Virus record (IMG/VR): IMGVR_UViG_3300026851_000001
Direction: 5' to 3' (one strand)
DNA: 64,000 nt
From: a virus
The notes beneath the pieces are model-generated. The model searched no databases. It was not told the DNA's origin and was given only the letters and a program-made list of their open reading frames with translations. Positions 1-54,833 of the stretch are shown here, piece by piece (position 1 is the first letter of the stretch; each line of letters starts with the position of its first letter). The position numbers and the translations under genes are program-made.

Positions 1-1
1 C

Positions 2-202: not shown

Positions 203-211
203 GATCGCCGC

Positions 212-460: not shown

Positions 461-675
461 AGCGAATCATTGACCTGATACGCGATGTTCTGCGAAGCGA
501 TCATGGCGTCATCAGTCTGAATAACAATGTGCCATACGACACGCCGATCCCATTCAATCCGCAAAGGTTTACTTGGCCAGGCAAAGAAAGAGGTTTGCCG
601 CCGCCACCAATTATCTGGTACGGAGACGCAAGCGATCCTCCAGAGAAAATGATTGATACCAAAGCCCGCCACTGA
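457..675 (+). CDS. Hypothetical Pro-rich protein
   Basis: ATGA overlap with upstream ORF; followed by terminator. Confidence 0.55.
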   Translation: MKRIIDLIRDVLRSDHGVISLNNNVPYDTPIPFNPQRFTWPGKERGLPPPPIIWYGDASDPPEKMIDTKARH

Positions 676-686
676 GCGGGCTTTTT
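661..686 (+). terminator. Intrinsic terminator
   Basis: AAAGCCCGC-CACTGA-GCGGGCTTTTT. Confidence 0.75.
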
Positions 687-732
687 CATGTCCGCTGTCC
701 TAGGACAAGGGACACGCAGATCACAAATTTCC

Positions 733-757
733 AGCCTCGGCAATGCCGGGGCTTTTT
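733..757 (+). terminator. Second terminator-like hairpin
   Basis: AGCCTCGGC-AAT-GCCGGGGCT-TTTT. Confidence 0.55.
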
Positions 758-766
758 ATGCCCGAG

Positions 767-826
767 TACCGGATGGGGTAGGGCGCCACGGGCCGGATGG
801 CTCAGCAGATGGGCGGATGCCCGGAG
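767..826 (+). promoter_or_regulatory. Scaffold mRNA leader with three CGGAUG hairpins abutting the SD
   Basis: TACC-GGATGG-GGTA (767-780), GGGCC-GGAT-GGCTC (790-803), GGGC-GGAT-GCCC (811-822), then GGAG at 823-826. Confidence 0.55.
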
Positions 827-832
827 AACCAG

Positions 833-1588
833 ATGAAACTGAAGCTCGACGAACAAGGTCACGCGGTACTGCAGGACGGCAAGCCGGTTTACGTGCACGA
901 CGACGGCAAAGAGGTGGCATTCGATGCGCCTGGAACCGTTGCCACGATCACCCGGCTGAACGCTGAAGCCAAGACCCATCGTGAAGGCAAGGAGGCAGCT
1001 GAGAAGCTGCTGAAAGGCTTCGAGGGGATCGAGGACGGCGCCGCCGCGCGCAAGGCTCTGGAGATCGTGGCAAATCTCGATCAGAAAAAGCTGGTGGATG
1101 CCGGCGAGATTGAGCGGGTGAAGAGTGAAATCAGCAAGGGCTATCAGTCCCAGCTCGACGAACTCGGCGCCAAGGCCAAGGCCTTCGAACAGCAGCTCTA
1201 CGAAGAGAAGATCGGCGGTGCTTTTAGCCGCTCCAAGCTCATCGCCGAGAAGCTGGCCATTCCCGCAGACATGGTGCAGGCCCGTTTCGGCCAGGCATTC
1301 AAGATCGAGGACGGCAAGACCGTCGCCTACGACCAGCACGGCAACAAGATCTACAGCCGTGAGCGTCCTGGCGAGCTGGCCAACTTCGACGAAGCCCTGG
1401 GCGCCCTCGTTGAGCAGTACCCCTACCGCGACCACATCCTGAAGGGTACCGGCGCCAATGGCGGCGGCGCACCGAACGGCGGTGGCGCTCCATCCGGCAA
1501 GAAAACCGTTAACCGCCAGTCCTTCGACACGATGGGCGCATCCGAGCGTCAGTCGTTCCTCAAGGAAGGCGGGACCGTTACTGACTGA
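833..1588 (+). CDS. Capsid scaffolding protein
   Basis: Coiled-coil with Gly-rich tail, directly upstream of the capsid gene; SD GGAG favours start 833. Confidence 0.8.
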   Translation: MKLKLDEQGHAVLQDGKPVYVHDDGKEVAFDAPGTVATITRLNAEAKTHREGKEAAEKLLKGFEGIEDGAAARKALEIVANLDQKKLVDAGEIERVKSEISKGYQSQLDELGAKAKAFEQQLYEEKIGGAFSRSKLIAEKLAIPADMVQARFGQAFKIEDGKTVAYDQHGNKIYSRERPGELANFDEALGALVEQYPYRDHILKGTGANGGGAPNGGGAPSGKKTVNRQSFDTMGASERQSFLKEGGTVTD

Positions 1589-1602
1589 TCAAGGAGTCAA
1601 TC

Positions 1603-2751
1603 ATGGCTAACACCCTCACCGGGCTCATCCCCGACATGTACGAAGCGCTCGACGTGGTGTCGCGCGAGCTGACCGGTTTCATTCCGGCAGTATCCCGCAG
1701 CTCCGAAGTTGCGCGTGCAGCACTGAACCAGCAAGTTCTGGTGCCGGTTACTACCGCTGCCAGTTCCGCTGACAACACCCCGGGCGTCACCGCGCCGAAC
1801 ACTGGCGACACCACCGTCGACAACGTAGCCGTCTCGATCACCAAGTCCAAGCACGTCCCTGTGCGCTGGAACGGTGAAGAGACTCGCGGCCTGCAGAATG
1901 CCGGCACTTTCTCGACCATCCAGGCCGACCGCTTCTATCAAGCGATGCGGACCCTGGTGAACGAGATCGAGGCGGACCTGTGGGGCGAGGCCTACAAAAA
2001 CGCCAGCCGCGCCTATGGCACTGCGGGCACCACTCCTTTCGGAACTGCCGCAGACATGAGCGATTTCGCTGGCGTCCTGCGCATCCTCGAAGAAAACGGC
2101 GCCCCGACCAACGATCTGCAGTTGGCCCTGGGTCACGCTGCAATCGGCAACCTGCGCGGCAAGCAGTCTGGCCTGTTCAAGGTCAACGAGGCAGGCTCCA
2201 GCGACATGCTGCGCAACGGCATGACTGATCGCATCATGGGCATGGCTCTGCGTCACTCCCATGCTGTCGGCGTGCACACCAAGGGCACCGGTGCAAGCTA
2301 CGTTACCAGTGGCTCGACCGCTGTCGGCGTGAGCGACATTGCCCTGGTAACCGGTACGGGTACTGTCCTGGCTGGCGACGTTGCTACCTTCGCGGCCGAT
2401 TCGGCCAACAAGTACATCGTCAACACCGGAGTGGCCGCACCGGGCACCATCAGCATCGGCAAGCCGGGCGCTCGCGTGACCATCCCGACCGCCAACGCGC
2501 TGACTGTCGGCAACAGCTACACCCCGAACGTCGCCTTTGCCCGCTCGGCCATCGTCCTCGCAACGCGCGCCCCCGCCCTTCCGGAAGGTGGTGACGCGGC
2601 CGACGACGTGATGATGATCACCGATCCGCGCACCGGCCTGTCGTTCGAAGTGGCCGTGTATCGGCAGTTCCTGCAGACCGTCTACCACGTCCGTCTGGCT
2701 TGGGGCTTCCGCGCCATCAAGCCGGAGCACATCGGCGTGCTGATCGGTTAA
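1603..2751 (+). CDS. Major capsid protein (P22 coat-like)
   Basis: MANTLTGLIP start, 382 aa, position after scaffold, coat-like C-terminus (VRLAWGFRAIKPEH). Confidence 0.9.
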   Translation: MANTLTGLIPDMYEALDVVSRELTGFIPAVSRSSEVARAALNQQVLVPVTTAASSADNTPGVTAPNTGDTTVDNVAVSITKSKHVPVRWNGEETRGLQNAGTFSTIQADRFYQAMRTLVNEIEADLWGEAYKNASRAYGTAGTTPFGTAADMSDFAGVLRILEENGAPTNDLQLALGHAAIGNLRGKQSGLFKVNEAGSSDMLRNGMTDRIMGMALRHSHAVGVHTKGTGASYVTSGSTAVGVSDIALVTGTGTVLAGDVATFAADSANKYIVNTGVAAPGTISIGKPGARVTIPTANALTVGNSYTPNVAFARSAIVLATRAPALPEGGDAADDVMMITDPRTGLSFEVAVYRQFLQTVYHVRLAWGFRAIKPEHIGVLIG

Positions 2752-2768
2752 TCCAACGCAACGACAAC

Positions 2769-2786
2769 CAGGGGCTTCGGCCCCTG
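2769..2786 (+). terminator. UUCG hairpin after capsid gene (terminator or stabiliser)
   Basis: CAGGGGC-TTCG-GCCCCTG; weak U tract. Confidence 0.5.
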
Positions 2787-2808
2787 CGTTGTTTCTGGAG
2801 AAAGCAAA

Positions 2809-3102
2809 ATGGCTGGACTTACCAAAGAGCAGAAAGCGGCCAAGGCCCTGATGGCTAAGGCTGTGGAACTGAGCGGCGTCACCGCCGAAGAATTTGCCAA
2901 GCTGTCCGAGGATGATCAGGCAGGTTTTACCGCCAAAGCGCAGGAGGCTATCGACGCCGCTGCAGCCGAGGCAAAACGCCTGGAGGACGAAAAGGCTGCT
3001 GACAACTCCCACCTGATCAAGGTCAGCAAGGACGGCGTTGAACTCGACGTGCATCCGACCGCGCTTGCAGCGCACAAGAACCTTGGCTGGAAAGAGGTGT
3101 AA
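2809..3102 (+). CDS. Hypothetical head-associated protein
   Basis: Good SD, Ala/Lys-rich, between capsid and adaptor genes. Confidence 0.7.
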   Translation: MAGLTKEQKAAKALMAKAVELSGVTAEEFAKLSEDDQAGFTAKAQEAIDAAAAEAKRLEDEKAADNSHLIKVSKDGVELDVHPTALAAHKNLGWKEV

Positions 3103-3105
3103 GTC

Positions 3106-3603
3106 ATGGCTCTGGTGATCGAAAACGGGAGCATCGTGGCCGGCGCCGAAAGCTTTGCCACGGCTGCCGAGCTGGTCACCTACGCGGCCAACTTCGGCCG
3201 CACAATTCCCAGCGACACGACTGCACAGGAAGCCCTGCTGCGCCGTGCCGCTTTGCAAATGAGCGCGATGTCGTGGAAGGGCGGCTTGGTCAACGAACTG
3301 CAAGCCCTGTCCTGGCCGCGCTACGACGTGTACCGCGACAACTGGCTGGTTCCTTCAAACTCCATTCCCCCGCAGATCAAGGCCGGCCAGATGGCGCTGG
3401 CTACCGAGATCCATGCCGACGACCTGGCACCGCCTGAGCTGAAGAAAGGCCCGGTAGTTCGTAACCGCGTAGAGGGTGCCGTCGACGTGCAGTATGGCCA
3501 GGCGGCCGGGTATGTGTCCCGCCCAGCAGCCACCCGCCAGTCCTACGCCCAGTTCGGCCCATTCCTGCAGTCTTCTATGCAAGTGGCCTTGGTGCGCGGC
3601 TGA
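3106..3603 (+). CDS. Head-tail adaptor (DnaT-like domain family)
   Basis: MALVIENG...QALSWPR motif typical of this adaptor family; synteny. Confidence 0.75.
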   Translation: MALVIENGSIVAGAESFATAAELVTYAANFGRTIPSDTTAQEALLRRAALQMSAMSWKGGLVNELQALSWPRYDVYRDNWLVPSNSIPPQIKAGQMALATEIHADDLAPPELKKGPVVRNRVEGAVDVQYGQAAGYVSRPAATRQSYAQFGPFLQSSMQVALVRG

Positions 3604-3983
3604 TGGCCTTCTATGACGACATGGCCCAGGTTGCGCTGGAGCTTATAACCGAGTTCGGCTCCGAACAAACCCTGCGCGACGTGACTGCCGGCGTGTACGA
3701 CGAAGTGGCAGGGGAATGGACGACCGAGCCAACCGACCTTGAGCAGCCCGCGCAGCTGATCTTGCTCGACTACACCCTGCAGGAATCCGGCCTGATGTAC
3801 GCCGAGGGATCGCAGATCCAGAAGGGCGACAAGAAGATCATCATCGCCGCCAAGGATCTAGCCTGGCCGCCTGCGCTCACCACGAAAGTGGATGTCGACG
3901 GCGTGCTCTGGCAGATCGTGAACATCAAGGAAGCCAACCCGGCAGGCACGCCGCTTGTGTACTTCTGCCAGGGGCGTAAGTGA
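3603..3983 (+). CDS. Head closure / head-tail joining protein
   Basis: IQKGDKKIII motif; synteny. Confidence 0.7.
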   Translation: MAFYDDMAQVALELITEFGSEQTLRDVTAGVYDEVAGEWTTEPTDLEQPAQLILLDYTLQESGLMYAEGSQIQKGDKKIIIAAKDLAWPPALTTKVDVDGVLWQIVNIKEANPAGTPLVYFCQGRK

Positions 3984-4378
3984 TGAGCTTCAAGAGCGAC
4001 ATGGCCAGGGCGACGCGCAAGATCGAGCAAGCGCATAACCAGATCGTCCGTACCGCGACTATCGACCTGTTCAGCGGCACGATCCGTGACACCCCGGTCG
4101 ACACTGGGCGCGCCCGTGGCAACTGGGTCACCCAAGTTGATACGCCTGCCCAAGGCGTGATCGAGCGCGACGACAAATCAGGCGCTGCAGCAATCGCTGA
4201 GGTCATCGCCAAGACGCCAGAGGGCGCCGGCCAGGAAACGACCATGGCAAATTCACTCCCGTACGTAGATCGTTTGGAAAATGGATACAGCCAGCAAGCT
4301 CCTGCTGGAATGGTCCGCAGAAACCTGGCCCGCGTTCAGCGCATCGTCCAAGCCGCCATATCGAAATTCAGGGTCTGA
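3980..4378 (+). CDS. HK97 gp10-like tail completion/neck protein
   Basis: TPVDTGRARGNW and PYVDRLENGYSQQAPAGMV motifs. Confidence 0.8.
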   Translation: MMSFKSDMARATRKIEQAHNQIVRTATIDLFSGTIRDTPVDTGRARGNWVTQVDTPAQGVIERDDKSGAAAIAEVIAKTPEGAGQETTMANSLPYVDRLENGYSQQAPAGMVRRNLARVQRIVQAAISKFRV

Positions 4379-4379
4379 C

Positions 4380-4799
4380 ATGTCCGAAGCCAAGATTCAG
4401 TCCGCACTTGTGCAGGGCCTGGTAGCTGCTGCGCTAGGGATTACCACCGGCGGCGAGGGCAAGAGCTTCACTCCGCCCAGTACCGCTACGCCATGGGCTG
4501 CCTGGTTCAACCTGCCGGCGTCCACTGACGTGGCATCGCTCGGCGTCGGCGGCAGCGACGAAACCACCGGCATTTTCCAGGTCGATCTGAATTACCCGCT
4601 CAACGACGGCACCGCCAACATCCTCGGCGCCGTGCAGAAGCTGCGCGACTACTTCGTTGCCGGCCGCCGCCTGGTCTATCAGGGCCAGTGCGTGAAGGTC
4701 GAGCGCGTCACCCGCAACAACCTCCGGCCCGTCGACGGCTGGCAGCAAATCAACGTCTCCATCTACTACATCGCTCAAACCGTCCGCCCGGAGGTATAA
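4380..4799 (+). CDS. Tail terminator-like protein
   Basis: GIFQVDLNYPLNDG motif; precedes tail tube gene. Confidence 0.7.
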   Translation: MSEAKIQSALVQGLVAAALGITTGGEGKSFTPPSTATPWAAWFNLPASTDVASLGVGGSDETTGIFQVDLNYPLNDGTANILGAVQKLRDYFVAGRRLVYQGQCVKVERVTRNNLRPVDGWQQINVSIYYIAQTVRPEV

Positions 4800-4802
4800 C
4801 CC

Positions 4803-5951
4803 ATGTCCTGCTTTGGCAACGGCTCTGCCGTCAAGCTCTACTACGTGCGCGAATACGGCACGATGACTGCCGACACCATCAGCGCGGCCGCTTCCGGCTC
4901 GACGTTCGCTGATTCCGGCTCTGGCTTCATCACGACCGGCAAGTTCGCGGTTGGCCACATCATCACAGTGTCTGGCTTTACCACTGCCGCGAACAACGGC
5001 CAGTTCAAGATCGCAACTGTTGCGGCCGGCGCGATCACCGTCACCGACATCTACGGCAACGCGGTAACCCTGGTGGACGAGGCGGCCGGCGATACCGTGA
5101 CGATCACCCAGGAAGGCGGAATTCCGGCCAACCCTGAGTTCAAGCCGGTGCGCTTCGTCTCCGAAGGCCTGAGCCCGAACATCAACCAGATCGAGTCCAA
5201 CGAGATTAACCAGGCCCGCCAGCGTGCGCCGAGCCGTGGCGGTACCTACAGCGTTGCCGGCGAGATCGCCGCCGAGGTCAGCTTTGCCAGCTTCGACGAC
5301 CTGATCGAGGCCGCCATGCAAGGCGTGTGGGCCGCTGATGAACTGGTCATCGGCTCTACCGAGCGCAGCTTTGCGATCCTCGAGCGCCACACCGACATCA
5401 GCGCCGACTACGTGTATCGCGGCAGCCGCGTGGCCACCATGAACATCGCCGCGCCGCTGGGCGACAAGGCCACCATCACCTTCGGCATGCTCGGCACCAA
5501 GGCCGAGGCCTACACCGTGCCAGGTGGCGCCACCTTCGCCTCAGCGACCACCAGCGACATGATGGTGACCACCAACGGTTCGTTCACTGAGGACGGCGAC
5601 GCGATCACCTACGCCACCGAGTGGAACATGACCCTCGACAACGGCATGGAAGCGGCCTTCTCCCTGTTCCAACGCGAGGCCTATTGCGTCACCAACGGCA
5701 TCGCCTCCGTCAGCGGCACCATGAGCGCCTACCTGAAGGACGGCACCCTGTGGGCCAAGGTGCTGAACGAGACCGAGACCAGCCACACCGTTGTGCTGGA
5801 AGAGGGCGCCGACAGTTACACCATCGAGCTGCCGAAGGTTCGCTACACCCAGGGCCAGAAGCAGGTCAGCGGCCCTGGCGCGGTGATCCCGCAGTACACC
5901 TACTCGGCCGGCTATGACGGCACCACCACCCTGCGCATCACCCGGAGCTAA
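4803..5951 (+). CDS. Major tail tube protein with internal extra domain
   Basis: SNEINQARQ, FDDLIEAAMQGVW and ERSFAILE motifs; synteny. Confidence 0.85.
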   Translation: MSCFGNGSAVKLYYVREYGTMTADTISAAASGSTFADSGSGFITTGKFAVGHIITVSGFTTAANNGQFKIATVAAGAITVTDIYGNAVTLVDEAAGDTVTITQEGGIPANPEFKPVRFVSEGLSPNINQIESNEINQARQRAPSRGGTYSVAGEIAAEVSFASFDDLIEAAMQGVWAADELVIGSTERSFAILERHTDISADYVYRGSRVATMNIAAPLGDKATITFGMLGTKAEAYTVPGGATFASATTSDMMVTTNGSFTEDGDAITYATEWNMTLDNGMEAAFSLFQREAYCVTNGIASVSGTMSAYLKDGTLWAKVLNETETSHTVVLEEGADSYTIELPKVRYTQGQKQVSGPGAVIPQYTYSAGYDGTTTLRITRS

Positions 5952-5953
5952 GC

Positions 5954-6385
5954 ATGACGGGAATTGACGCTTTCAAGACGCGCGGCAAGGCGAACGAAGG
6001 GATTCGTATCACCCTGTCGCAGCCGGACGGCACGCCGACCGAGCATTGGATGCAGGTCCGGTCGGTCTGGTCGGATGACTACCAGGCTGCACGCTCTGAG
6101 CTGATCCGCCAGGCCATTGAGGACGGCAAGCGCCTGGCCGAAGCCAAGCCGGAAGAAGCGGCCGAACTGAAGCATGAGGCCGACCGCCGCCGCCGCGCCA
6201 AACTGTGCGCCTCGCTGATTGCCGGATGGTCGTTCGAAGATCTGGAGTTCAGCGAAGAAGCCGCCGCCGAGTTCCTGCTTGAAGCGCCGCAGATTCTGGT
6301 GCACATCGAGAAGATTGCCGAGGACGACCGGCGTTTTTTCGCGAACGGATCAGCCAGCTTGTCGAATGGGGAAAGTCCGAGCTGA
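5954..6385 (+). CDS. Tail assembly chaperone (gpG-like)
   Basis: Between tube and tape measure genes; slippery site near the 3' end. Confidence 0.85.
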   Translation: MTGIDAFKTRGKANEGIRITLSQPDGTPTEHWMQVRSVWSDDYQAARSELIRQAIEDGKRLAEAKPEEAAELKHEADRRRRAKLCASLIAGWSFEDLEFSEEAAAEFLLEAPQILVHIEKIAEDDRRFFANGSASLSNGESPS

Positions 6386-6648
6386 TCCTGCTGCGCCCGC
6401 CTCCCGGTTCGGATGAGCCACTGCGCGAGCATCTGCAGCGAATCGAGAAAGCCACCGGGCACCAGCCAAAGGAACTGGCCGATCAGCCCGAATGCCCCGC
6501 CGAACTCTCCTACCTGTGGGAATGGTTCTGGCAACTCCCCCGCAGCTTCAACTTCACCGAAATGTTCCATTGGTCTCAGCTCACCCGCCGCAACCTGCGC
6601 GCTTGGGAGGCTGAGGTATTGGCCGATCTGCAGCGAGTCTGGATATGA
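6334..6648 (+). CDS. -1 frameshift extension of tail assembly chaperone (gpGT-like)
   Basis: T-TTT-TTC heptamer at 6334-6340. The -1 frame is open (FFRERISQLVEW...QRVWI) to a TGA overlapping the tape measure ATG. Confidence 0.8.
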   Translation, partial: FFRERISQLVEWGKSELILLRPPPGSDEPLREHLQRIEKATGHQPKELADQPECPAELSYLWEWFWQLPRSFNFTEMFHWSQLTRRNLRAWEAEVLADLQRVWI

Positions 6649-9098
6649 CCGAATACGCTAAGCTTGTCGTCAGCGTCGACAGCCGCCAGGCACGCACTGC
6701 GGATGCAGACCTTGACCGACTTGGGCGGACGGCTGGCCGTACTGAATCGGCGACCAACCAGCTTACCGGTGCGTTCCGGCGCCTGGCTGGTCCGCTTGCG
6801 GCTGTAATCAGCGCGCGGGAGATCGCCCAAGCTGCTGAGAACTACACCACCCTGACGAACCGTCTGCGCCTGGTTACCAATGGCACGGAAGAGCTGGTAG
6901 CGGCGCAGGATGCTGTTTTCAGGATCGCCCAGGAATCACGCCAGCCACTGGCCGCGACTGCTGAGCTGTACCAGCGCATTGCCGCCAACTCGCAAGAGCT
7001 TGGCTTGTCGGCCAACGAGATCGTGTCCGTCGTGGATACGGTCAACAAGACGCTCGCCATCAGCGGCAGCAGCGCGGCAGCAGCGTCCGGTGCGCTCGTC
7101 CAGTTGGGCCAGGCCTTCGCGTCCGGACAACTGCGCGGCGAAGAGCTGAACGCCGTTCTGGAGGCTGCGCCACCGCTGGCCAAGGCCATTGCTGACGGCC
7201 TCGGCGTAACCGTGGGCGAACTGCGCAAACTCGGCGCAGACGGCCAGCTCACCGCCGATGCTGTGGCCCAGGCCATCATCAAGAGTGGCGAAGCGATTGA
7301 TCAGTCCTTCGGTAACATCCAGACCACTGGTGGCCAGGCACTCACCGTACTGGGCAACAGCCTCACCAAGGTGATTGGCGAGCTTGACGGCGCAACCGGT
7401 GCCAGCGCGCTGTTTGCTGATTCCGTGGTTGGCCTGGCCAGCTATCTGGATTCAGGCCAGCTCACTGACGGCCTGATCGAGACCTTCAACATCTGGTCGG
7501 CAAGCATCGGCGCCATTGGCAACGACATCGCGTCGCTCGAGCTTGAGTTTGACGGCCTGCAGGAGAATGGCAGCAGCGTCGCGTCCTTCCTCGCTGATGC
7601 TTTCCAGCAGATGCCGGCCAACCTGCGCGCCGGGGTGCAGATCGCCACAGTAGAAGTGGCCTCCCTATTCGATAAGGCCGTTGCCTACGCCCAGTACGCT
7701 GGCAGTGCCATCAAGGCGGCATTCACCGATGCGACAGAGGCGCAAGCGGCGCAAGAGCTTGAGCAGACGCTGATCCGCATCAACGGTGTGCGTGGCGAAA
7801 GCCTGGACAGCATCCTGAGCGAGCGCGACGCGATCCTCCAGGCTGCCGAGGCAAACCGCCAGCGCGCGGCAGAAGAGCGCAAGCAGCGCGACGCCGACCG
7901 CGCCGCTCGCCAAGCGCAGATCGCAGAGCTTCGCAAGGGGCTGCAAGGACGCGATATCAGCCTTGGCGGTGCCGGTGGTGCTGACAAGGCAGCCAAGGAG
8001 GCGCAGCGCACCGCCGAGCGGTTGCAGCAGCTGTACCAGAGCACAGAGCAGGGCCTTGCGCGTCAGGTCGCACTGTTCGGCCAAACCACAGAAGCCGCCC
8101 GCGTTCGCTATGAGGTCGAGAACGGCGAACTCGCCAAGCTCAATGGCGCGCAGCAGGAAAGGCTGATCGGTCTTGCCGAGGAAATCGACAAGCTCAACCA
8201 GATCAAGAAGGACCGCGAAGAGGCTGCGGCGACTGAACAATACACCGCCGCACTACGCGACCAGATCACAGCCCGCCGCAACGCCATCGACATCGAGATT
8301 GAGGCCATTGGCGTAGGAGAGCGTCAGGCCGAGACGCTGCGTCAGTTGAACGAGCTTGAGTTTGAGTATGCCCGCCGTCTGGAAGAACTTTCCCGCGCAC
8401 AGGGCACATCTGCCGCCCTTAGCGCTGAAGCCTATCAAGCCCGAGTCCAGGCCCTGCGATCAGCAATGGAAGAAGAGGTTCGCCTGGTCGAAGAGGGCGA
8501 GCGCCGCAAGGAAGAAGCGCGCGCCAACGGCATAAATGGCGTGAACAAGGCCACGCAGGACTACATCAACAACGCCAAAGACCTCGCCTCGCAGTTTGAG
8601 GGCGTGACCAATACGACCTTGAACGGGCTCGAGGAAGGCATTGCACAGTTCGTGACAACCGGGAAACTGAGCTTTACCGACCTTGCCAACTCCATCATTG
8701 CCGACCTTGCGCGCATTGCTGCTCGCCAGTTGGTTTCGAATGCCGCCTCCGGCCTGCTTGGCGCATTTGGTGGTGGAGCCGGTGCCGCTGCAGGCGCTGG
8801 CGGCGGAGGGGCTGGGCTGGCTGGTCTGTTCGCAAGCTTCGCCGGCTTCTTTGACTCTGGCGGGCGTATCCCAACTGGCGGCTGGGGCATCGTCGGCGAG
8901 CGCGGACCTGAAATCGTGCGCGGCCCCGCCAACGTCACTGGGCGTGAGGAAACGGCGCGCCAGATGACCACGAACCGCAACATGAGCCTCACGCAGAACC
9001 TCTACCTACAGGGGCGCGCTGATAACCGCACGATGTCCCAGGCGGCAAACGCGGCCGCTCGCGAACAGCGCATCATTCAAGCCAGGTTCGGGGGCTGA
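6645..9098 (+). CDS. Tape measure protein
   Basis: 817 aa, Ala-rich; QLGQAFASGQLRGEELNAVLE motif; GERGPE C-terminus. Confidence 0.95.
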   Translation: MTEYAKLVVSVDSRQARTADADLDRLGRTAGRTESATNQLTGAFRRLAGPLAAVISAREIAQAAENYTTLTNRLRLVTNGTEELVAAQDAVFRIAQESRQPLAATAELYQRIAANSQELGLSANEIVSVVDTVNKTLAISGSSAAAASGALVQLGQAFASGQLRGEELNAVLEAAPPLAKAIADGLGVTVGELRKLGADGQLTADAVAQAIIKSGEAIDQSFGNIQTTGGQALTVLGNSLTKVIGELDGATGASALFADSVVGLASYLDSGQLTDGLIETFNIWSASIGAIGNDIASLELEFDGLQENGSSVASFLADAFQQMPANLRAGVQIATVEVASLFDKAVAYAQYAGSAIKAAFTDATEAQAAQELEQTLIRINGVRGESLDSILSERDAILQAAEANRQRAAEERKQRDADRAARQAQIAELRKGLQGRDISLGGAGGADKAAKEAQRTAERLQQLYQSTEQGLARQVALFGQTTEAARVRYEVENGELAKLNGAQQERLIGLAEEIDKLNQIKKDREEAAATEQYTAALRDQITARRNAIDIEIEAIGVGERQAETLRQLNELEFEYARRLEELSRAQGTSAALSAEAYQARVQALRSAMEEEVRLVEEGERRKEEARANGINGVNKATQDYINNAKDLASQFEGVTNTTLNGLEEGIAQFVTTGKLSFTDLANSIIADLARIAARQLVSNAASGLLGAFGGGAGAAAGAGGGGAGLAGLFASFAGFFDSGGRIPTGGWGIVGERGPEIVRGPANVTGREETARQMTTNRNMSLTQNLYLQGRADNRTMSQAANAAAREQRIIQARFGG

Positions 9099-9101
9099 AC
9101 C

Positions 9102-9695
9102 ATGTTCAATGAAGCAAGATTGCTGGACAAGGTTGCCTACGGCTCGGAGTTCGGGCAGGAGTTCAATACCCGAGTGAAGGCTCTGCGCTCTGGCGTTGAG
9201 CGCAGGAATGCTAACTGGTCTATGCCGCTGGGCAAGTACCGCGTGCTGTACGACCGCCTTAACGCGCCTGACCACCTATTGGTTGCTCGCGCCCACATGG
9301 CTTGCATGGGATCGCTGATCGCCTTCAGGTTCAAAGACTGGACAGACTTCGAAGCAAATGCAGAAAGCCTTGGCGAGGCCACTGGTGCGGAGCAGCAGGT
9401 ACAACTGGTCAAGGCCTACCCGTTCGGTTCGATAACGCTCTCGCGCGTCATCAAGAAGCCGGTGAATGGGTCGGTGACCATCTACGCCAACGGATCGCCG
9501 ATCAGCGCGACAATCGACTACACGACCGGCGTCGCGACCTTTACCGCCACAGATGGCGACGCAATCACCTGGTCTGGTCAGTTCGACATTCCCGTGCGGT
9601 TTGAGTCAGACCGCCTGGATGTCTCCGCAGATTCGCGCGGGCAGAATGGCCTGATCCTCTCGTCCGATGTTGGCTTGGTCGAGGTGCGTCTGTGA
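9102..9695 (+). CDS. Distal tail protein (DUF2460/GTA-type)
   Basis: SGVERRNANWS, FRFKDWTDF and FDIPVRFESD motifs. Confidence 0.85.
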   Translation: MFNEARLLDKVAYGSEFGQEFNTRVKALRSGVERRNANWSMPLGKYRVLYDRLNAPDHLLVARAHMACMGSLIAFRFKDWTDFEANAESLGEATGAEQQVQLVKAYPFGSITLSRVIKKPVNGSVTIYANGSPISATIDYTTGVATFTATDGDAITWSGQFDIPVRFESDRLDVSADSRGQNGLILSSDVGLVEVRL

Positions 9696-10606
9696 GGCGT
9701 ATCCCTGACGCGCTGCGCGCACACCTGCAGCAGCCTGTCACAACGACGTGTCGCCTGCTGAAAATCACGCTGGCGGACGGCCGCCAGTTCGGCATGACGA
9801 CCTTGGATCGAGCCGTGACTTACCAGGGCGTTGAGTACAGCGCAATCAACGGCATCAATACGTCGATCATCGCGACCGACACCGGGCTAAGCGTAGACAA
9901 CGCAGAGGCCACCGCTCTTCTTTCTTCCGATATTGAAGGGATCACGGTCGAGATGGCCCTGGCCGGCGATCTTGATGACGCCCAATGGGAAATGATGCTG
10001 ATCAACTGGGCCGATATCTCCATGGGCCACATGGTGATCGACGCGGGCGATATCGGCGAAGTGCGGATCGTAGACGATATGGTCTACATCCCGGAGCTGC
10101 TGAGCTTCGCAATGCGGCTGCAGCAGAGCATCGGGCATGTCTGGTCGCGCCGCTGCCGTGCGATTTTCGGGACTCCGGCGAACAGCCAGACAGGTTGCGG
10201 GGTTGATGCTGAATCCATGTGGCAGGCCGGCGAGGTAACGGGCATTGGCGATGAGCCTCAGCGGGTGTTCGCTGACTCCGGTTTATCAATGGACCCTGAG
10301 CCGGTACCTGGCCGCCTCCGCTGGCTGACTGGCCCCAACACATCCAATCGTCTGTATCAGGTCGAGGCCTACAGTGCTGTCAGCGGCACCATCGCTCTGC
10401 TTGAGCCGGTGCCGTTCCCTGTCGCCGTTGGCCACACATTCGAGATCCGCCGCGACTGTAACAAGTCGCCGAGCAACTGCATCGGCTACAGCAATCTTCT
10501 CAACTACAAGGGAGAGCCATTTATCCCGGTCGGCGATGGCCTGGAGACGATGACGCCCAGTGCGCAGGTGTTCGGGGGTCTGAGTGGATCAGCAATCGTC
10601 GATTGA
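9692..10606 (+). CDS. Baseplate hub / tail-tip protein (DUF2163, BR0599-type)
   Basis: N-terminal TTCRLLKITLADG; C-terminal DCNKS..NC..YSNLLNYKGEPFIP Cys motif. Confidence 0.85.
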   Translation: MRRIPDALRAHLQQPVTTTCRLLKITLADGRQFGMTTLDRAVTYQGVEYSAINGINTSIIATDTGLSVDNAEATALLSSDIEGITVEMALAGDLDDAQWEMMLINWADISMGHMVIDAGDIGEVRIVDDMVYIPELLSFAMRLQQSIGHVWSRRCRAIFGTPANSQTGCGVDAESMWQAGEVTGIGDEPQRVFADSGLSMDPEPVPGRLRWLTGPNTSNRLYQVEAYSAVSGTIALLEPVPFPVAVGHTFEIRRDCNKSPSNCIGYSNLLNYKGEPFIPVGDGLETMTPSAQVFGGLSGSAIVD

Positions 10607-11009
10607 TGCCTGCATTGCCGAGGCGCGCAGCTATATCGGTGTCAAGTGGCGGCACCGTGGGCGCTCAAGGTTCGGGATCGACTGCATCGGTCTGCTCGTC
10701 CGTGCGTGCGCGGCTGGTGGAATCCAGATGCGTGATCGCGTCGACTATGGCCGTGAGCCCTGGAAAGACGGCCTGGAACGCGAGATGCGAGAGCACTTTG
10801 GCGAACCAGTCAATGACCTTGCGGCCGGAGATGTGGTGCTGATGCGCTGGGACGAGCGGCCAGAGCCTTGCCACGTCGGCATCATCGGCTCAGACCAGTA
10901 CGGACTCACGCTGATTCACAGCTACAGCATGATCAGCGTGACAGAGCACGGCATTGACGACGCCTGGCGCAAACGAATCGTGATGGTGTTCAGACCATGG
11001 CACAGGTAG
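10584..11009 (+). CDS. NlpC/P60-family tail peptidase
   Basis: WRHRGRSRFGIDCIGL with HVGI and LIH catalytic motifs. Confidence 0.9.
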   Translation: MDQQSSIDACIAEARSYIGVKWRHRGRSRFGIDCIGLLVRACAAGGIQMRDRVDYGREPWKDGLEREMREHFGEPVNDLAAGDVVLMRWDERPEPCHVGIIGSDQYGLTLIHSYSMISVTEHGIDDAWRKRIVMVFRPWHR

Positions 11010-12019
11010 CGGTAGGTGTAGCCGGCGCAGTAGCCGGCTTTTTTATTGGTGGCCCTGCCGGCGCCTTCTACGGGTTCTCAGCCGGTATGGCGCTCGGAGG
11101 GATGCTGTTCTCCAAGACCAAACCGATACGCCAGACGCTCGGGCAGATCGCCAACCAGACAGCGAAGGAAGGCGACCCAAGAGTCATTGTGTGGGGCAGG
11201 GTGCGGCCCATCGGCGGGAACATCATTCACTGCCAGGCGCCGGTCAAGCGCTTTGTCACCACGTCCAGTAGCGGCGGCGGCAAGGGCGGCTCAAAGAAGA
11301 AACAGGAGACGAAGACAGAGCACGTTTATCGGACCTACGCCATTGGCGTATGCGAAGGTCCGATCACTGCATTCACGCGCATCTGGCGCAACAACAAGCT
11401 GGTCTACGACGGGCGTGGCACGTCATGGGGCGCCGCAAACAATCACGTCTTCTTGGGCAAGTTCAGGCTCTACTTGGGCGCCTGGAACCAGATGCCGGAC
11501 CCGACGCTACAGGCTATATGGGGCAGCGGTAATGTCCCGGCCTATCGCGGCACGGCATACATGGTGTCGATCGACGAAGACCTGACCGACCAGGGCGGAA
11601 TGGTGCCTCAATGGCAGTTCGAGGTAGAGCGCGCAGAGGGTAACTTTTTATCGTCGAGACCGTATTCCGCAGAACAGGAAGACTCGATGTATACGGACGG
11701 ACTTGCAATCGGAGGCGCTTACCCGCCCAGTCTCGTTGACGAAATGGTCACGGCAAGTCTTCCGCTTGATGGGGAACTCAGAAGTATTTATCAAGAATAC
11801 GCTGAATGGCAGATTGAAGAGATTAATCTATCCGGCTCGCCCTTAGACGGTATATTGACCGATGCTTTCAGGCAATATACCGACTGGCCGCTTGAGGAAA
11901 TGCAACTAGGCGGTGCCCCGCAAAATGGCAATCTCGACGTCAAGTTGATCGGATACACAGAATGGCAGATTGAAGAGATTAATCTATTCGGCTCGCCGTT
12001 AGACGGAACTTTAACTTGA
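10997..12019 (+). CDS. Tail-tip protein N-terminal part fused to 26-aa repeats
   Basis: YAIGVCEGPI and VPAYRGTAY motifs; repetitive acidic C-terminus. Confidence 0.75.
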   Translation: MAQVAVGVAGAVAGFFIGGPAGAFYGFSAGMALGGMLFSKTKPIRQTLGQIANQTAKEGDPRVIVWGRVRPIGGNIIHCQAPVKRFVTTSSSGGGKGGSKKKQETKTEHVYRTYAIGVCEGPITAFTRIWRNNKLVYDGRGTSWGAANNHVFLGKFRLYLGAWNQMPDPTLQAIWGSGNVPAYRGTAYMVSIDEDLTDQGGMVPQWQFEVERAEGNFLSSRPYSAEQEDSMYTDGLAIGGAYPPSLVDEMVTASLPLDGELRSIYQEYAEWQIEEINLSGSPLDGILTDAFRQYTDWPLEEMQLGGAPQNGNLDVKLIGYTEWQIEEINLFGSPLDGTLT

Positions 12020-12029
12020 GGTTTACATT

Positions 12030-13025
12030 ATGAATATATGGGTTCCCAAATTTAAAATTATTGAGCCGGATAGAGAGATCCCTGTTGCATCTGGCGGTTT
12101 AGCAGGTGAGTTTCAATTGACCGCCAGTGCACCAGGTAGGGCGCCGCGTAAAAGCCCATGGTTTAGTAATCTCATATTGAATAACGGTCTTGATTCTGCT
12201 GGTTCAACGCCTGCTTTACTTCAAAGGTGTGCAGTCGGCACAGGCACAACCGCGCCAAACATTGCGCAGAACTCACTGGTAAGTCAGATCGCTGTAACTT
12301 CTGACGTGCAGTCTAACGTCGTCGAAACCGAACCTACTACGCCGTATCGCATCACAAAGACTGTTAGGTACAGATTCGCTCAAGGTGCGGCAGCTGGGAA
12401 CTTGACGGAAGTAGCTGTGGGGACTAATACAGGAACCCCTATGAGCGCCTGGTCGCGCGAGCTAATCCGCGATCAGTTTGGGAACCCGATCTCATTTCCT
12501 GTTCTGGCTGACGAATTTCTAGATGTCACATATCGCATAACAGGTTATCCGCCGCTTTCTGATCTTGAGGGTACGATAAACATCAGCGGGACCCCTTACG
12601 ATTTCGTAATGCGCGCCGCACAAGTCGGTACAGTTTCGGGTAACACCGCAGGCTGGTCTTTCGCTTGGGCGACTGGTGCTCTATTTTTTGCGGGTGCCGG
12701 TCAGACTAACGCTTTTGAGTTTGTGGCCCGTGCGTCGAATATCGGGGGTATCACAGAGGCACCTATAGGAACGAGTTTTAACGCCAGTAGCTACACAAAC
12801 GGCTCATACTCGAACGGTAATTATTACCGCGACTCCGTACCGTTATGGGGTCTAAACGCAGGTAACGTGCCGGGAGGTATTCGCAGCGTCCAATGGACTA
12901 CCGGAAGGGCGTCGGCGACAAACGGGTCCAGGATGAATTTCCAGATTCAATATAATCCGCCAATTCCGAAGAACGACACGCAAATACTGACGCTCCCTAT
13001 GCGCCATACATGGGGCAGAACGTAA
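12030..13025 (+). CDS. Putative virion structural (tail) protein, AT-richer
   Basis: NLILNNGLD, AVGTGTTAP and GNLTEVAVG motifs; beta-rich. Confidence 0.7.
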   Translation: MNIWVPKFKIIEPDREIPVASGGLAGEFQLTASAPGRAPRKSPWFSNLILNNGLDSAGSTPALLQRCAVGTGTTAPNIAQNSLVSQIAVTSDVQSNVVETEPTTPYRITKTVRYRFAQGAAAGNLTEVAVGTNTGTPMSAWSRELIRDQFGNPISFPVLADEFLDVTYRITGYPPLSDLEGTINISGTPYDFVMRAAQVGTVSGNTAGWSFAWATGALFFAGAGQTNAFEFVARASNIGGITEAPIGTSFNASSYTNGSYSNGNYYRDSVPLWGLNAGNVPGGIRSVQWTTGRASATNGSRMNFQIQYNPPIPKNDTQILTLPMRHTWGRT

Positions 13026-16772: not shown

Positions 16773-16787
16773 GTGCCTGGAGAAATC

Positions 16788-17219
16788 ATGCGTACATCAC
16801 AGCAAGGACTTGACCTGATCAAGTCCTTCGAAGGACTGCGCCTGTCTGCCTACAAGTGCCCGGCTGACGTGTGGACTATCGGCTACGGCACGACTGCCGG
16901 CGTAAAGCCTGGGCAGGTGATCTCGAAGGAGCGTGCCGAAGAGCTGCTGCGCGAGGACGTAACCAAGGTTGAGGCGCAGGTCTTGCGCACCATCAAGGTT
17001 CAGCTGAAACAGGGCCAATTCGACGCCCTGGTGTCCTTCACCTACAACCTCGGCGCCGGAAACCTTGCCAACTCTACCCTGGCGCGATTGCTGAACGCAG
17101 GCGACTACATGGGCGCTGCGGCTCAGTTCGACCGCTGGAACAAGGCGGGCGGCAAGGTGATGAAGGGGCTTGTTGCTCGGCGCGCCGCTGAGCGTGCCAT
17201 GTTCGAGGACAGGTCATGA
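16788..17219 (+). CDS. Endolysin, GH24 lysozyme
   Basis: FEGLRLSAYKCPADVWTIGYGTT catalytic motif; no SAR segment. Confidence 0.95.
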   Translation: MRTSQQGLDLIKSFEGLRLSAYKCPADVWTIGYGTTAGVKPGQVISKERAEELLREDVTKVEAQVLRTIKVQLKQGQFDALVSFTYNLGAGNLANSTLARLLNAGDYMGAAAQFDRWNKAGGKVMKGLVARRAAERAMFEDRS

Positions 17220-17731
17220 CCGCCTGGCTAAAGCTGGTTCCCGCATGGGCCTGGTGGGTGCTTGCCTTGGCCGTTGTAGCCGGTGGGCAGCAGGTTAGGG
17301 TGCTTTCGGCCCAGGCTGTAGCCGCTGAGGCACAGACTGCGCTGGCCAACTACCGCACCGAGGTTGCAGAGCGCGACCGGCGAGCGGCGATGTTCCTCAT
17401 TCAGGAAAACCAGCGGCGCCAGGCCGCTACGGAGAAAGCAGATGCAGAAGCCCAGCAACAACTGGCTGCAGCGCGTGGCGATGCTGAGCGTGCTGGCAGT
17501 GCTCTTGAGCGGCTCAAGCTGCGCCTCGCAGCAGCTGAGCAGCGCAGTCGTGACGCCGGCAATTCCATCACTGCCCAGCTCGGCCAGGCAGCCGAAGACG
17601 CCGCCCGAATGCGTGCCGACATGCTCGGCCGGCTTGGAGCGGCTGCTGGATTCTATGCTGGCATCGCCGACCAACGAGGAATAGCTGGGGCGACGTGTGA
17701 GAAAGCGTATGACGGTTTGAGGGGGGAGTAA
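17216..17731 (+). CDS. Inner-membrane spanin (Rz-like)
   Basis: N-terminal TM plus coiled-coil, after endolysin. Confidence 0.8.
   Translation: MTAWLKLVPAWAWWVLALAVVAGGQQVRVLSAQAVAAEAQTALANYRTEVAERDRRAAMFLIQENQRRQAATEKADAEAQQQLAAARGDAERAGSALERLKLRLAAAEQRSRDAGNSITAQLGQAAEDAARMRADMLGRLGAAAGFYAGIADQRGIAGATCEKAYDGLRGE
17442..17684 (+). CDS. Embedded outer-membrane spanin (Rz1-like lipoprotein)
   Basis: Overlapping frame; hydrophobic LSVLAVLLSGSSC lipobox-like segment, then Pro-rich; start uncertain (17442 or 17481). Confidence 0.65.
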   Translation: MQKPSNNWLQRVAMLSVLAVLLSGSSCASQQLSSAVVTPAIPSLPSSARQPKTPPECVPTCSAGLERLLDSMLASPTNEE

Positions 17732-17755
17732 TTGCCCAGAGCGGGCGAGAAATGA

Positions 17756-17928
17756 TGTTGCTGAAAAGCTGCTGAGGCGTGGAGGAATCCACGGTAATCC
17801 ACAGCAACTTTCAACAACCTTGGCCAGTAAACATCAGTGTTTCCGGGCCTTGAATGGTGGAGCCGGGGGGATTTGAACCCCCGGTTATTCGGCAGATTTG
17901 CTGGCTTGCGCATGATTTGTTGCTGAAA
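17756..17928 (-). other. attP-like site 1: tmRNA 3' end core (17855-17883) with arm-type repeats
   Basis: Minus strand CGGGGGTTCAAATCCCCCCGGCTCCACCA matches the Pseudomonas ssrA 3' end as remembered; TGTTGCTGAAA at 17756 and 17918. Confidence 0.75.
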
Positions 17929-18028
17929 TGCCGCTGATCTGTTGATGTTTTCCGCGCTCGTAACCCCTGCCGGCGAGGAATCCAAAGTAGCAGGCCGCCA
18001 CTAGCAGCAACGCTGGTATTTCAATCAT
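17885..18028 (-). CDS. Small membrane protein, 47 aa (MIEIPALLLVAACYFGFLAGRGYERG...)
   Basis: SD GAGGAG; one TM segment; stops next to the tmRNA core. Confidence 0.5.
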   Translation of the reverse strand: MIEIPALLLVAACYFGFLAGRGYERGKHQQISGISATNHAQASKSAE

Positions 18029-18105
18029 GCTGACTCCTCATTATGGATTTGAACCGGCGTCCCGAACATCCTAGCCGCCTTGTTTCCTGCAGGTGGCTTA
18101 TTCCT

Positions 18106-18311
18106 CCCCAAAACCATGGCTACACGCCTGATTCTGTGGTTACGCCAGACGACGCTTTTTGCATGGCCGAAACTGGCTTAATGCTTTGATATTGAAGGAG
18201 AATCCGCGCATTGCTGCCGTGTCCCAGGCCTTGATGCCATACAGGACGTAACTCATTGATTCTCCTAGTGGTTTCGGATCGCTCCAAAACCTCTCCAAAA
18301 TTCCGCCAAAA
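18106..18311 (-). other. attP-like site 2 next to int: copy of a YffB/ArsC-family gene 5' end, IHF site and arm repeats
   Basis: AGGAGA-ATG at 18256 gives MSYVLYGIKAWDT; TATCAAAGCATTA (18179-18191) fits WATCAANNNNTTR; C(T/G)CCAAAA at 18282, 18293, 18304 and CCCCAAAA at 18106. Confidence 0.7.
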
Positions 18312-18320
18312 CGTCTCCCA

Positions 18321-19415
18321 TTATGCCACGTCGATCCACTCGGCGCCCCTGCTGTCCTTGTACAGGTCCGTCATCTTGGCTGACTTGTGCCCGAGCAGGG
18401 CCTGGGCATTGCGCCCCTCTGCCGCGTGCAGGCGTGCGGCCAGGGACCGCATCTCATGGAAGGTCGGCGGGTTGTCCGTCACCACGATGTCACCGGCCTT
18501 GACCGCAGCGTCTCGCGCCTCGGCAAACTTCCTGCTGATCGTATCGAGCATGATCGGGCTGCCGGCCTTGGCTTTGCTCACCGTGCGGGCGTGGTGCACC
18601 AGATGCTTCGACACCACGTTGTCACGGCACAGCTTGATCACGCCGGCCAGATCAAGGCCGATGCACTGCAGGCCTATCGACGTGCTCAGGCGCAGCCGCT
18701 GCTTGGTCTTGTGCTGGATGACAAGCAGATGCCCGTCCTGCTCATCCCTGAACAGCATGGATGCGATATCCTCCCGCCGCTGACCTGTGATCAAGGCCAG
18801 CTCCATCGCACGTTTCAGCCAGGCTGTCCCTGCCCTGGCATGAATCGCCCGCCACATCTCGAGAGTCAGGCGCTCGCGCTTGACCTTGATCCTCGCCGCC
18901 TTGGTCACTTCGACCGGGTTCGCTGCGGTCCAGCCGGCCGCTATCGCCTCCATGAACACATCGCGCAGCAGTGAGCGCATTGCGCGGCTCATCTGCGACC
19001 TGCCAGCCTTGACCATGGCGCCCAGGTAGTCGGCAACCATGATCGTGGTGACGGCGTTGATGTCGTGCTTCCCGAACTCAGCATCAAGCCGCTTTATCCG
19101 CATGCGCAGATTGCGCTTGGTGTTGTCCTCGATCTCGCGCTCTTCGATGATCCGGCCGTACTCGGCCAGCCACTTGCTGAATAGGCGCGCCGCTGGCCTC
19201 TCCATGCGCTCACGCAGGGTAGGCCCGGCCGGCAGTAGCTGGTTCTCTGCATTCGCAGTGGCCACCGCAAGGGCTTTGTCTTTGCCGAGCCCGAAAAACT
19301 GCCCTGTCACCGGATCTTTGTAGCTGTAGTAGATGACGCCGTTGCGGCTGTCCTTCTTGCGGTACAGGTTAGGCGGCAGGTCTTTCGATCCGTGATTCCT
19401 TGGTCGCGGCGCCAT
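18321..19415 (-). CDS. int: Tyrosine integrase (lambda Int type with arm-binding domain)
   Basis: TGQRREDI (R), K, HEMR (HxxR), LGH and terminal Y (DLYKD). Confidence 0.95.
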   Translation of the reverse strand: MAPRPRNHGSKDLPPNLYRKKDSRNGVIYYSYKDPVTGQFFGLGKDKALAVATANAENQLLPAGPTLRERMERPAARLFSKWLAEYGRIIEEREIEDNTKRNLRMRIKRLDAEFGKHDINAVTTIMVADYLGAMVKAGRSQMSRAMRSLLRDVFMEAIAAGWTAANPVEVTKAARIKVKRERLTLEMWRAIHARAGTAWLKRAMELALITGQRREDIASMLFRDEQDGHLLVIQHKTKQRLRLSTSIGLQCIGLDLAGVIKLCRDNVVSKHLVHHARTVSKAKAGSPIMLDTISRKFAEARDAAVKAGDIVVTDNPPTFHEMRSLAARLHAAEGRNAQALLGHKSAKMTDLYKDSRGAEWIDVA

Positions 19416-19638
19416 AGCGTGCCCTCATGATTCGACTGTGAAGCGAGCCGTCATCCGGCAGCTCTACCGGCACCTCAGGTTCGCAGTATCGGGCGTGCTC
19501 GTCCACCCGGTAGCAGCGGCCGACCTTCTGCGCGGGCGGGTCGAAGCGGTTCGTCCTGGCCCACATGCGCAGGGTTGCGGGAGACGGAACCGGGTCAAGG
19601 TGCGCCTCCGCCCACTTCTCAAGCGTGATCAGTTTCAT
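19369..19638 (-). CDS. xis: Excisionase
   Basis: MKLITLEKWA...TLRMWAR...PPAQKVGRCYRV; overlaps the int start. Confidence 0.85.
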   Translation of the reverse strand: MKLITLEKWAEAHLDPVPSPATLRMWARTNRFDPPAQKVGRCYRVDEHARYCEPEVPVELPDDGSLHSRIMRARYGAATKESRIERPAA

Positions 19639-20237
19639 GCGGCCACCTGCTCGGCTATCAGCCGATCCCATGCGGGCTTGTCTTCAGCGTTGACGTGCCA
19701 TTCGAGCTTCCCGCCTTCTTTCTCTGTCACGCCGCCACCGTACTTGGCGCCCTCAAACGAGAACTCGGCGCTGTTGTAGATCCATGGGTAGTCTGCGCGG
19801 AAGAGCGTGAACGTCAGGTAAGGGCGTTCGGTTTGCACTTTGGTCTTGAAGGCTTCGCCGCTTGCCTTGCGCTGGGCAATATCCTGTTCGCGAGCCTCCT
19901 TGCATCCAGGCCCACAGTACGCGTGCACGCCCTCGAAGATCGGCGCTTGCGGGTTGCCGTCTTCATCCTCGGCGGTGTCGCCGTAGATCACTGTTTCGCA
20001 GTAATCGCAGGTCTGCGAGTAGCCGTTATCAATCCAGGCTTGAGAAGGTATCTTGCCGGTGCTCTGGTACTGATCGGCCCATGGCGCGCGGCGGCAACTT
20101 TCGATGCATTCAAACTCGGTGTCGTGCTCGTTGGCGCCCAGGCGCCTGGCTGCGATACCGCTGCTTGCGAAGACGATCACCGTCATGGCCTCGGATCGCT
20201 CCGTGACCGCATATGCCTTCAATGGTTTATCGGACAC
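19635..20237 (-). CDS. Hypothetical protein (Cys motifs)
   Basis: 200 aa; ATGA coupling to xis. Confidence 0.7.
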   Translation of the reverse strand: MSDKPLKAYAVTERSEAMTVIVFASSGIAARRLGANEHDTEFECIESCRRAPWADQYQSTGKIPSQAWIDNGYSQTCDYCETVIYGDTAEDEDGNPQAPIFEGVHAYCGPGCKEAREQDIAQRKASGEAFKTKVQTERPYLTFTLFRADYPWIYNSAEFSFEGAKYGGGVTEKEGGKLEWHVNAEDKPAWDRLIAEQVAA

Positions 20238-30607: not shown

Positions 30608-30683
30608 TGGGGCAACGAACGGGACTCGAACCCGTGACCTATCGGTTATGAGCCGACTGCTCTACCTGCTGAGCTACCGTTGC
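30608..30683 (-). tRNA. tRNA with CAT anticodon (Met or Ile2), 76 nt
   Basis: GCAACGG/TCGTTGC acceptor, GCTC/GAGC D-stem, CTCATAA loop, TTCGAGT T-loop, encoded CCA. Confidence 0.85.
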
Positions 30684-51930: not shown

Positions 51931-51939
51931 GATCGCCGC

Positions 51940-53316: not shown

Positions 53317-53330
53317 TCAAGGAGTCAATC

Positions 53331-54830: not shown

Positions 54831-54833
54831 GTC

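Follow-up and report, generated by a model that had tools for sequence, protein, structure and literature searches.

A complete, orphaned ssrA-type attP beside the working attP of a Pseudomonas phage: probable scar of an integration-module swap

Introduction

The ssrA (tmRNA) gene is a well-known integration target, and it is textbook mosaicism for related temperate phages to exchange their integration modules. Also known are phages whose insertion site is the end of a protein gene, which they supply with a replacement copy of that end; phage 21 and e14, both at icd, are examples. Some elements encode no integrase: integrase-less, cis-mobilizable elements borrow the integrase of a relative. 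Integrases and islands that use the 5' end of dusA have been described (PMC4482086).

The locus analysed here lies in a window of 64,000 nt, which is the whole stretch of DNA that was studied (IMG/VR virus record IMGVR_UViG_3300026851_000001). It holds two attP sites in tandem, referred to as site 1 (attP1) and site 2 (attP2). Site 2 is like lambda-type modules at protein-gene ends, with an Arm-DNA-bind_1 Int (gene int2), a neighbouring xis gene, a core flanked on either side by arm repeats, and an IHF-consensus site. Unlike phage 21 and e14 at icd and the elements at dusA, it targets an ArsC/YffB-family gene, at the 5' end. Site 1 is like the module of phages MR15 and MR13 (NC_074660 and MT104473) and of prophages in the Pseudomonadaceae genomes G134 and G273. 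It shares with them the same 29-bp ssrA core, three arm units in equal order and orientation, a hairpin after the CCA, and a position between late genes and a leftward-reading integrase gene (int1). Unlike those modules, which have an intact integrase, the window keeps only about 21 codons of int1. Also unlike MR15, it has an extra stretch of approximately 65 bp with a 47-codon open reading frame (ORF), followed by the second, unrelated attP.

A literature search for natural tandem attP sites of different specificity found no description and returned engineering papers only. The tandem arrangement is a new instance of a known process; it is not a new system and reveals no new mechanism. A complete orphan attP with an integrase stump, in tandem with a working attP, is nevertheless a neat and rarely documented by-product of that process. 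New here are the 3' remnant of int1 behind site 1, and the single 355-bp block that contains site 1, the ORF and the remnant.

Results

Phage genome and gene order

Positions 1–12272 of the window recur exactly at 51729–64000; the window is therefore a genome of 51,728 bp written with wrap-around. Features in the first 12.3 kb are counted twice owing to this wrap-around. The closest nucleotide matches of the window are Pseudomonas phages and prophages, and the GC content of the phage genome is approximately 60%. The window is the genome of a temperate Pseudomonas phage. Around the locus, tail genes are followed by an endolysin gene, a DUF2514 gene, the att region, int2 (leftward) and xis. This order of late genes, attP, int and xis is the lambda layout. 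Genes outside the att region that are referred to here are as follows.

16773–17219: endolysin gene, after the tail genes
17216–17731, plus strand: DUF2514 (Rz-like) gene, end of the lysis cassette (Pfam PF10721, E=6.6e-15)
30608–30683, 44910–44985 and 44989–45063: three tRNA genes (Met, Thr, Asn)

Site 2, int2 and xis

The site next to the integrase gene has the parts of a lambda-type attP.

18104–18224: attP2 P arm, 91% identical to the far junction of a prophage in Ectopseudomonas composti and kept in the Ga0070752 prophage
18225–18260, minus strand: attP2 core of 36 bp, from empty yffB sites in the related genomes G418 and G291 and from prophage junctions
18261–18320: attP2 P' arm, kept in E. 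composti, Ga0208645 and LESphi3
18321–19415, minus strand: int2, a lambda-type tyrosine integrase gene (Arm-DNA-bind_1, PF09003, E=6.3e-22; Phage_integrase, PF00589, E=4.8e-12; SAM-like domains)
19369–19671, minus strand: excisionase gene (xis; Pfam PF07825 Exc, E=1.2e-13), overlapping the int2 start

The core comprises the ribosome-binding-site-proximal bases and the first 12 codons of unoccupied yffB/arsC-family genes. Identity of 18225–18260 to the unoccupied yffB genes in G418 and G291 is 36/36 bp, followed by one mismatch and five more matches, and the ATG at 18256–18254 with the next codons copies the start of the ArsC/YffB-family gene. An earlier note on this DNA had read a yffB-like gene start at this place, and it is present together with the other two elements described there. 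The IHF consensus WATCAANNNNTTR is matched at 18179–18191 (minus strand), and two relatives have retained this match. The three CCAAAA repeats, located by pattern scan at 18284, 18295 and 18306, have an 11-bp period and lie in the P' arm. The outermost site of the P arm, CCCCAAAA, is at 18106–18113. Putative arm-type sites are found on both arms, three CCAAAA in P' and one in P, and these are kept in relatives.

The earlier note had counted a single integrase, and the search agrees. No second integrase was found in the phage genome by tblastn with three integrase queries; the matches are 18321–19415 and the short remnant described below. Its sequence and the junctions of related prophages (below) indicate that site 2 (18104–18320) is the attP at which the lambda-type Int and Xis of this phage work. 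The phage would integrate through attP2, by means of its own Int and Xis, into a chromosomal ArsC/YffB-family gene at its 5' end. Integration would provide yffB with a phage-supplied ribosome-binding site and first codons, and yffB would then lie just downstream of int on the same strand. Because the phage carries a 36-bp copy of the start of the target gene, yffB should stay intact after insertion.

Two minor features of the yffB copy may be mentioned. The phage copy has a Trp codon (TGG, minus strand, 18222–18224) in place of a Cys that is conserved in the bacterial genes; lysogens keep the Cys, because the Trp codon is just beyond the 36 bp of identity. At the far junction, a 38-codon fusion ORF (18256 down to 18140) would come under the control of the native promoter.

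Prophages of the int2 type

Prophages with the closest integrases occupy the predicted target. The prophage in E. composti LY1 encodes an Int with 92% amino acid identity to int2. At its int-side junction, the P' arm and its CCAAAA repeats are joined to the start of an ArsC/YffB-family gene, and identity to the window breaks off after GGCATCAAGGCCTG. At the far end, approximately 48 kb away, 91% identity to window positions 18105–18266 runs into bacterial DNA just past the ATG. A second, metagenomic prophage (Int 88%) shows the same two yffB junctions (Ga0208645, int side; Ga0070752). The P and P' arms of these relatives match window positions 18105–18266 and 18219–18330, respectively, and every prophage junction found for the int2 family is at yffB.

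The junctions also locate the attP2 crossover, which falls in GGCATCAAGGCCTG (18225–18238). It is placed within this shared string because the P'-side copy in E. composti differs in its first codons. A crossover at ATCAATG was also considered for site 2 and rejected, since unoccupied yffB genes share their first codons with the attP of the window. The record of phage vB_Pae_LESphi3 (OQ594956) starts at the equivalent of 18225, which fits a prophage end at the attP2 core. Like the phage studied here, LESphi3 has the same type of P' arm repeat, and its int is 73% identical to int2 at the nucleotide level and 64% at the amino acid level. Nothing similar to site 1 turned up in the LESphi3 record. 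A 2688-bp contig assigned to Bowmanella yangjiangensis encodes an Int 92% identical to int2; either contamination or a broader host range of the module is possible.

Site 1: core, arm units and hairpin

Site 1 lies between the lysis cassette and site 2 and has the following parts.

17755–17775, plus strand: attP1 arm unit L1 (GTTGCTGAAAAGCTGCTGA type), kept in the MR15 attP and in four ssrA-side prophage junctions
17801–17820, minus strand: attP1 arm unit L2, an inverted copy of the L1 motif, kept in the MR15 attP and in four ssrA-side prophage junctions
17825–17852, minus strand: hairpin directly past the CCA end, from folding; it would follow ssrA after integration
17855–17883, minus strand: attP1 core of 29 bp, the ssrA (tmRNA) 3' end including CCA, from Rfam tmRNA and identity to ssrA
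17917–17935, plus strand: attP1 arm unit R1 (TTGTTGCTGAAATGCCGCTGA), kept beside an intact int1 in MR15, G134 and G273

The earlier note had identified a 29-bp tmRNA 3' end at 17855–17883, and this is borne out. On the minus strand the core reads the T-arm, the acceptor 3' strand and the CCA of tmRNA. The Rfam tmRNA match has E=2.8e-8 and scores under the gathering threshold because only the 3' end of the tmRNA is present. The core is identical (29/29 bp, 100%) to the ssrA 3' end of E. composti, and 100% matches to ssrA also occur in many of the 401 Pseudomonadaceae genomes searched. Matches to the query were obtained in 387/401 of these genomes, mostly to the core alone, and among the matches listed all end sharply at 17883. 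A chance resemblance to tmRNA is ruled out by the 29/29 bp identity to real ssrA genes together with homology to working attP sites.

The arm repeats reported for site 1 are likewise as described. Exact copies of TGTTGCTGAAA occur at 17756 and 17918 only, in a scan of the whole window, and the inverted CAGCAAC/TCAACAA copy is at 17803–17819. Units L1, L2 and R1 are conserved with MR15, G134, G273, G332 and G092. The hairpin folds at -11.0 kcal/mol, and the hairpins of five relatives span -11.9 to -21.3; the window copy is counted within the range of the family. It is interrupted in comparison with that of G332, and decay of the hairpin was considered on this account, yet a value of -11.0 in the family range provides no evidence of decay. 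A T-run terminator was looked for at the hairpin and none was found.

The MR15-type module and prophages at ssrA

Phages MR13 and MR15 match window positions 17757–17937 at approximately 78% identity. In MR15 the attP lies 72 bp from the stop codon of a 392-amino-acid integrase with an Arm-DNA-bind_2 domain. In the alignment of MR15 with the window, the core and the three repeat units are conserved; the spacers are divergent, with a 22-bp indel. This pattern shows past constraint on the arms and core and gives no date for its end.

Bacterial genomes show where sites of this kind are used. In G134, G332, G092 and G273, the hairpin known from site 1 comes after ssrA, as do the L2 and L1 units. 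G134 and G273 also show the other junction, where an int1-type integrase gene comes after the core and the R1 unit. The integrases of these two prophages are 78% identical to each other. With both junctions at ssrA, the G134 and G273 prophages indicate that this type of attP is used in nature at ssrA. The integrases of MR15 and the ssrA prophages are intact, have 384–392 amino acids and an Arm-DNA-bind_2 domain, and lie 69–72 bp from the core. In the 401 Pseudomonadaceae species genomes, int1-type integrases (at least 55% identity) are encoded in 14, and in a fifteenth the gene is interrupted by a stop codon. Prophage junctions at ssrA are seen in several Pseudomonadaceae genomes. By homology to these modules, site 1 is the complete attP of another family, MR15-type and specific for ssrA.

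The two sites belong to integrases with different arm-binding domains, PF09003 (Arm-DNA-bind_1) in int2 and PF12167 (Arm-DNA-bind_2) in int1, and this difference matches the two unrelated sets of arm motifs. The lack of relation between the arm motifs, which the earlier note had asserted, is upheld: the two sites have one 8-mer in common, against 2.1 expected by chance. Junction mapping in relatives, the check suggested there, separates the families in the same way, with int2 prophages at yffB and int1-type prophages at ssrA.

A remnant of int1 behind site 1

The MR15-type module in the window is incomplete: its attP is a member of the family, and the cognate Arm-DNA-bind_2 integrase is reduced to a remnant of 45 nt. 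Two short reading frames follow the attP1 core.

17885–18028, minus strand: 47-codon ORF over the right arm of attP1, from the ORF list and frame reading; status as a gene uncertain
18025–18089, minus strand: 3' remnant of int1, an integrase gene of the MR15 type, approximately 21 codons and a stop, from tblastn, HMM and nucleotide alignment

The best tblastn match of the MR15 Int in the whole phage genome is at 18123–18046 on the minus strand (E=0.025), between sites 1 and 2. An HMM built from the C-terminal 45 residues of the four closest int1 proteins and run against six-frame translations recovered AGNKAARMFGTPVQI at E=4.6e-4; the next match had E=1.8. The remnant encodes AGNKAARMFGTPVQI, then six codons and TGA, and this six-codon run to the stop resembles that of MR15. 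Positions 18045–18089 align ungapped with the 3' end of the MR15 int (36/45 nt) and with that of G273 (34/43), a nucleotide identity at the level of attP1 itself. The remnant is short, with 15 conserved residues at E=4.6e-4, and its strand and its place directly behind site 1 are those expected. A search of the 401 genomes with the 33-amino-acid remnant peptide gave three weak matches (E 0.02–0.04), none in an integrase; the peptide is too short for a search at genome scale, and it was the HMM run on the phage genome that proved informative. A T-loop-like string at 18050–18070 was considered as a further tRNA fragment and rejected, as it is coding sequence of the int1 remnant.

The 47-codon ORF has a strong ribosome-binding site (GAGGAG) and a hydrophobic N-terminus, and its start codon shares bases with the stop of the int1 remnant (ATGA), such that the two are translationally coupled. 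Among 5.8 billion proteins no homologue other than itself was found, and there was no Pfam match. A search of the viral contig set (viral_contigs) with an exact 30-mer from the ORF gave no match. The ORF could be a small moron gene from the donor phage, or no gene.

The 355-bp block and its joints

Pairwise and multiple alignments with the two prophages that have the same Int delimit one segment.

17749–18103: 355-bp block containing attP1, the 47-codon ORF and the int1 3' remnant

Among this phage and the two int2 relatives examined, only this phage has the block. Both relatives have the end of DUF2514 (17720–17748), approximately 17 bp of filler, and then the P arm from the equivalent of 18104. 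The conserved left flank of the block, 17720–17748, comprises the DUF2514 3' end and 17 bp, and is present in the E. composti and Ga0070752 prophages. The fillers of the two relatives are homologous to each other. The int2 gene of the window is 91% identical to that of E. composti, and these two are 85.7% and 87.6% identical to the third. As the window and E. composti are thus the closest pair and both relatives are without the block, the block is, with respect to the int2 module, a gain in the lineage of the window. The left joint lies 6 bp before the outermost attP1 arm unit. The right joint can be placed at 18090–18103, next to the outermost CCCCAAAA arm site of attP2 and outside it. For the tandem arrangement itself, there is one genome to compare.

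Discussion

The results are best explained by a swap of integration modules. The orphan attP1 is read as a recent recombination scar in which an ssrA-specific module was joined to a yffB-specific module, and the phage carries out its own integration through attP2; this reading is given a probability of roughly 0.8. The earlier note had proposed replacement of the integrase with retention of the old attP, a proposal directly supported by the int1 remnant, by the 355-bp block and by the intact int1 genes beside homologous attP sites.

From the joints and flanks we infer the following history. The parents would have been temperate phages of equal gene order, one with lysis genes, attP1, a small ORF and int1, and the other with lysis genes, attP2, int2 and xis. 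The right-hand crossover would have been illegitimate, approximately 65 bp inside the 3' end of int1 on one side and immediately outside the outermost arm site of attP2 on the other. The left crossover could have been homologous and could lie anywhere leftward, for example in the shared DUF2514 gene. The product would be the present order of lysis cassette, attP1, 47-codon ORF, last ~21 codons of int1, attP2, int2 and xis. The attP2-int2-xis module would be intact because survivors needed a working module, and attP1 would have been carried along without its enzyme.

As no cognate integrase is encoded in the genome, site 1 has no part in the integration of the phage itself, and we infer that it is inactive at present. 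By default, site 1 is a plain relic. The earlier note had named decay of the arm repeats as the sign of a plain relic; that sign is absent, since the core is perfect and the three arm units and the hairpin are intact. A long-abandoned site should have drifted. The swap is therefore recent, or the site is maintained. Given an MR15-type integrase in trans, site 1 could accordingly still serve as a substrate; no such use is seen in the results.

Such use in trans would resemble that of the integrase-less cis-mobilizable elements. An MR15-type integrase from a resident prophage or a co-infecting phage would insert the phage at ssrA, and the phage would have a second route into the chromosome. Every recognisable part of attP1 is intact, the host ssrA has the identical 29-bp core, and helpers exist, as shown by the 14 of 401 species genomes with an int1-type integrase. 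However, those same figures make helpers uncommon, and two close int2 relatives manage without site 1. Moreover, no chromosome junction with the 47-codon ORF or the right arm was found in the 401 genomes, and neither this phage nor close kin was found at ssrA in them, both close int2 relatives being at yffB. As the phage already encodes a complete integration module, there would be little selection for a second route. Insertion at ssrA in trans is thus quite unlikely. Alternatively, the 29-bp core in the prophage could serve as a second attB, into which phages, satellites or islands that target ssrA insert. The core is identical to the natural target, and ssrA is a busy integration site in the Pseudomonadaceae, with prophage junctions in several genomes. 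Yet no relative was found with an element inserted at site 1, and there is no evidence of selection for such a role. Insertion between the lysis genes and attP2 would in addition carry a cost, because the genome would exceed the packaging size upon excision. A landing pad of this kind is very unlikely. Taken together, one or other of these two uses is unlikely. It is quite unlikely that the orphan attP1 is kept because it functions, whether by giving the phage two addresses, one self-encoded and one helper-dependent, or by letting the prophage capture ssrA-targeting elements.

It could also be supposed that int2 recombines both sites through a shared core or arm feature. The 8-mer GGCCTTGA does occur at 17847–17854, beside the site 1 core, and at 18228–18235, inside the site 2 core. 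However, a single common 8-mer is below chance expectation, and the copy at site 1 is outside the identity to ssrA. Site 1 contains no CCAAAA and site 2 contains no TTGCTGAAA units, and the int2-family junctions all being at yffB also argues against a shared enzyme. This possibility is close to negligible.

One sequencing run bears on the host. Look-ups with Int and DUF2514, aimed at the phage in an integrated state, returned only short Logan contigs of SRR5581474, which are identical to the window and end at 18231 and 17882. For an assumed k of 31, these ends fall one base short of the 31-mers that the phage would have in common with host yffB and ssrA, and an assembly graph would be expected to branch there. 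With k=31 assumed, a suitable host with both targets would co-occur in the sample; the contig ends show use of neither site.

The locus is a clear natural example of temperate phages changing their chromosomal address, with the swap joint preserved to within approximately 14 bp. The joint keeps the whole of the old attP and a stump of the old integrase beside the new attP-int-xis, and it provides a concrete substrate for testing the use of orphan attP sites in trans. Two Pseudomonas att-site families are also defined, one at the 5' end of yffB with CCAAAA arms and one at the 3' end of ssrA with TTGCTGAAA arms. For annotators, the locus is a warning that a tRNA- or tmRNA-like fragment near an integrase gene is not necessarily the site of that integrase.

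Finally, a separate point concerns the MR15 record in GenBank (NC_074660). The real integrase, at 4218–5396 (392 amino acids, Arm-DNA-bind_2 and catalytic domain), is labelled 'hypothetical protein', and a 64-codon ORF over the attP, at 3998–4192, is labelled 'putative site-specific integrase'.
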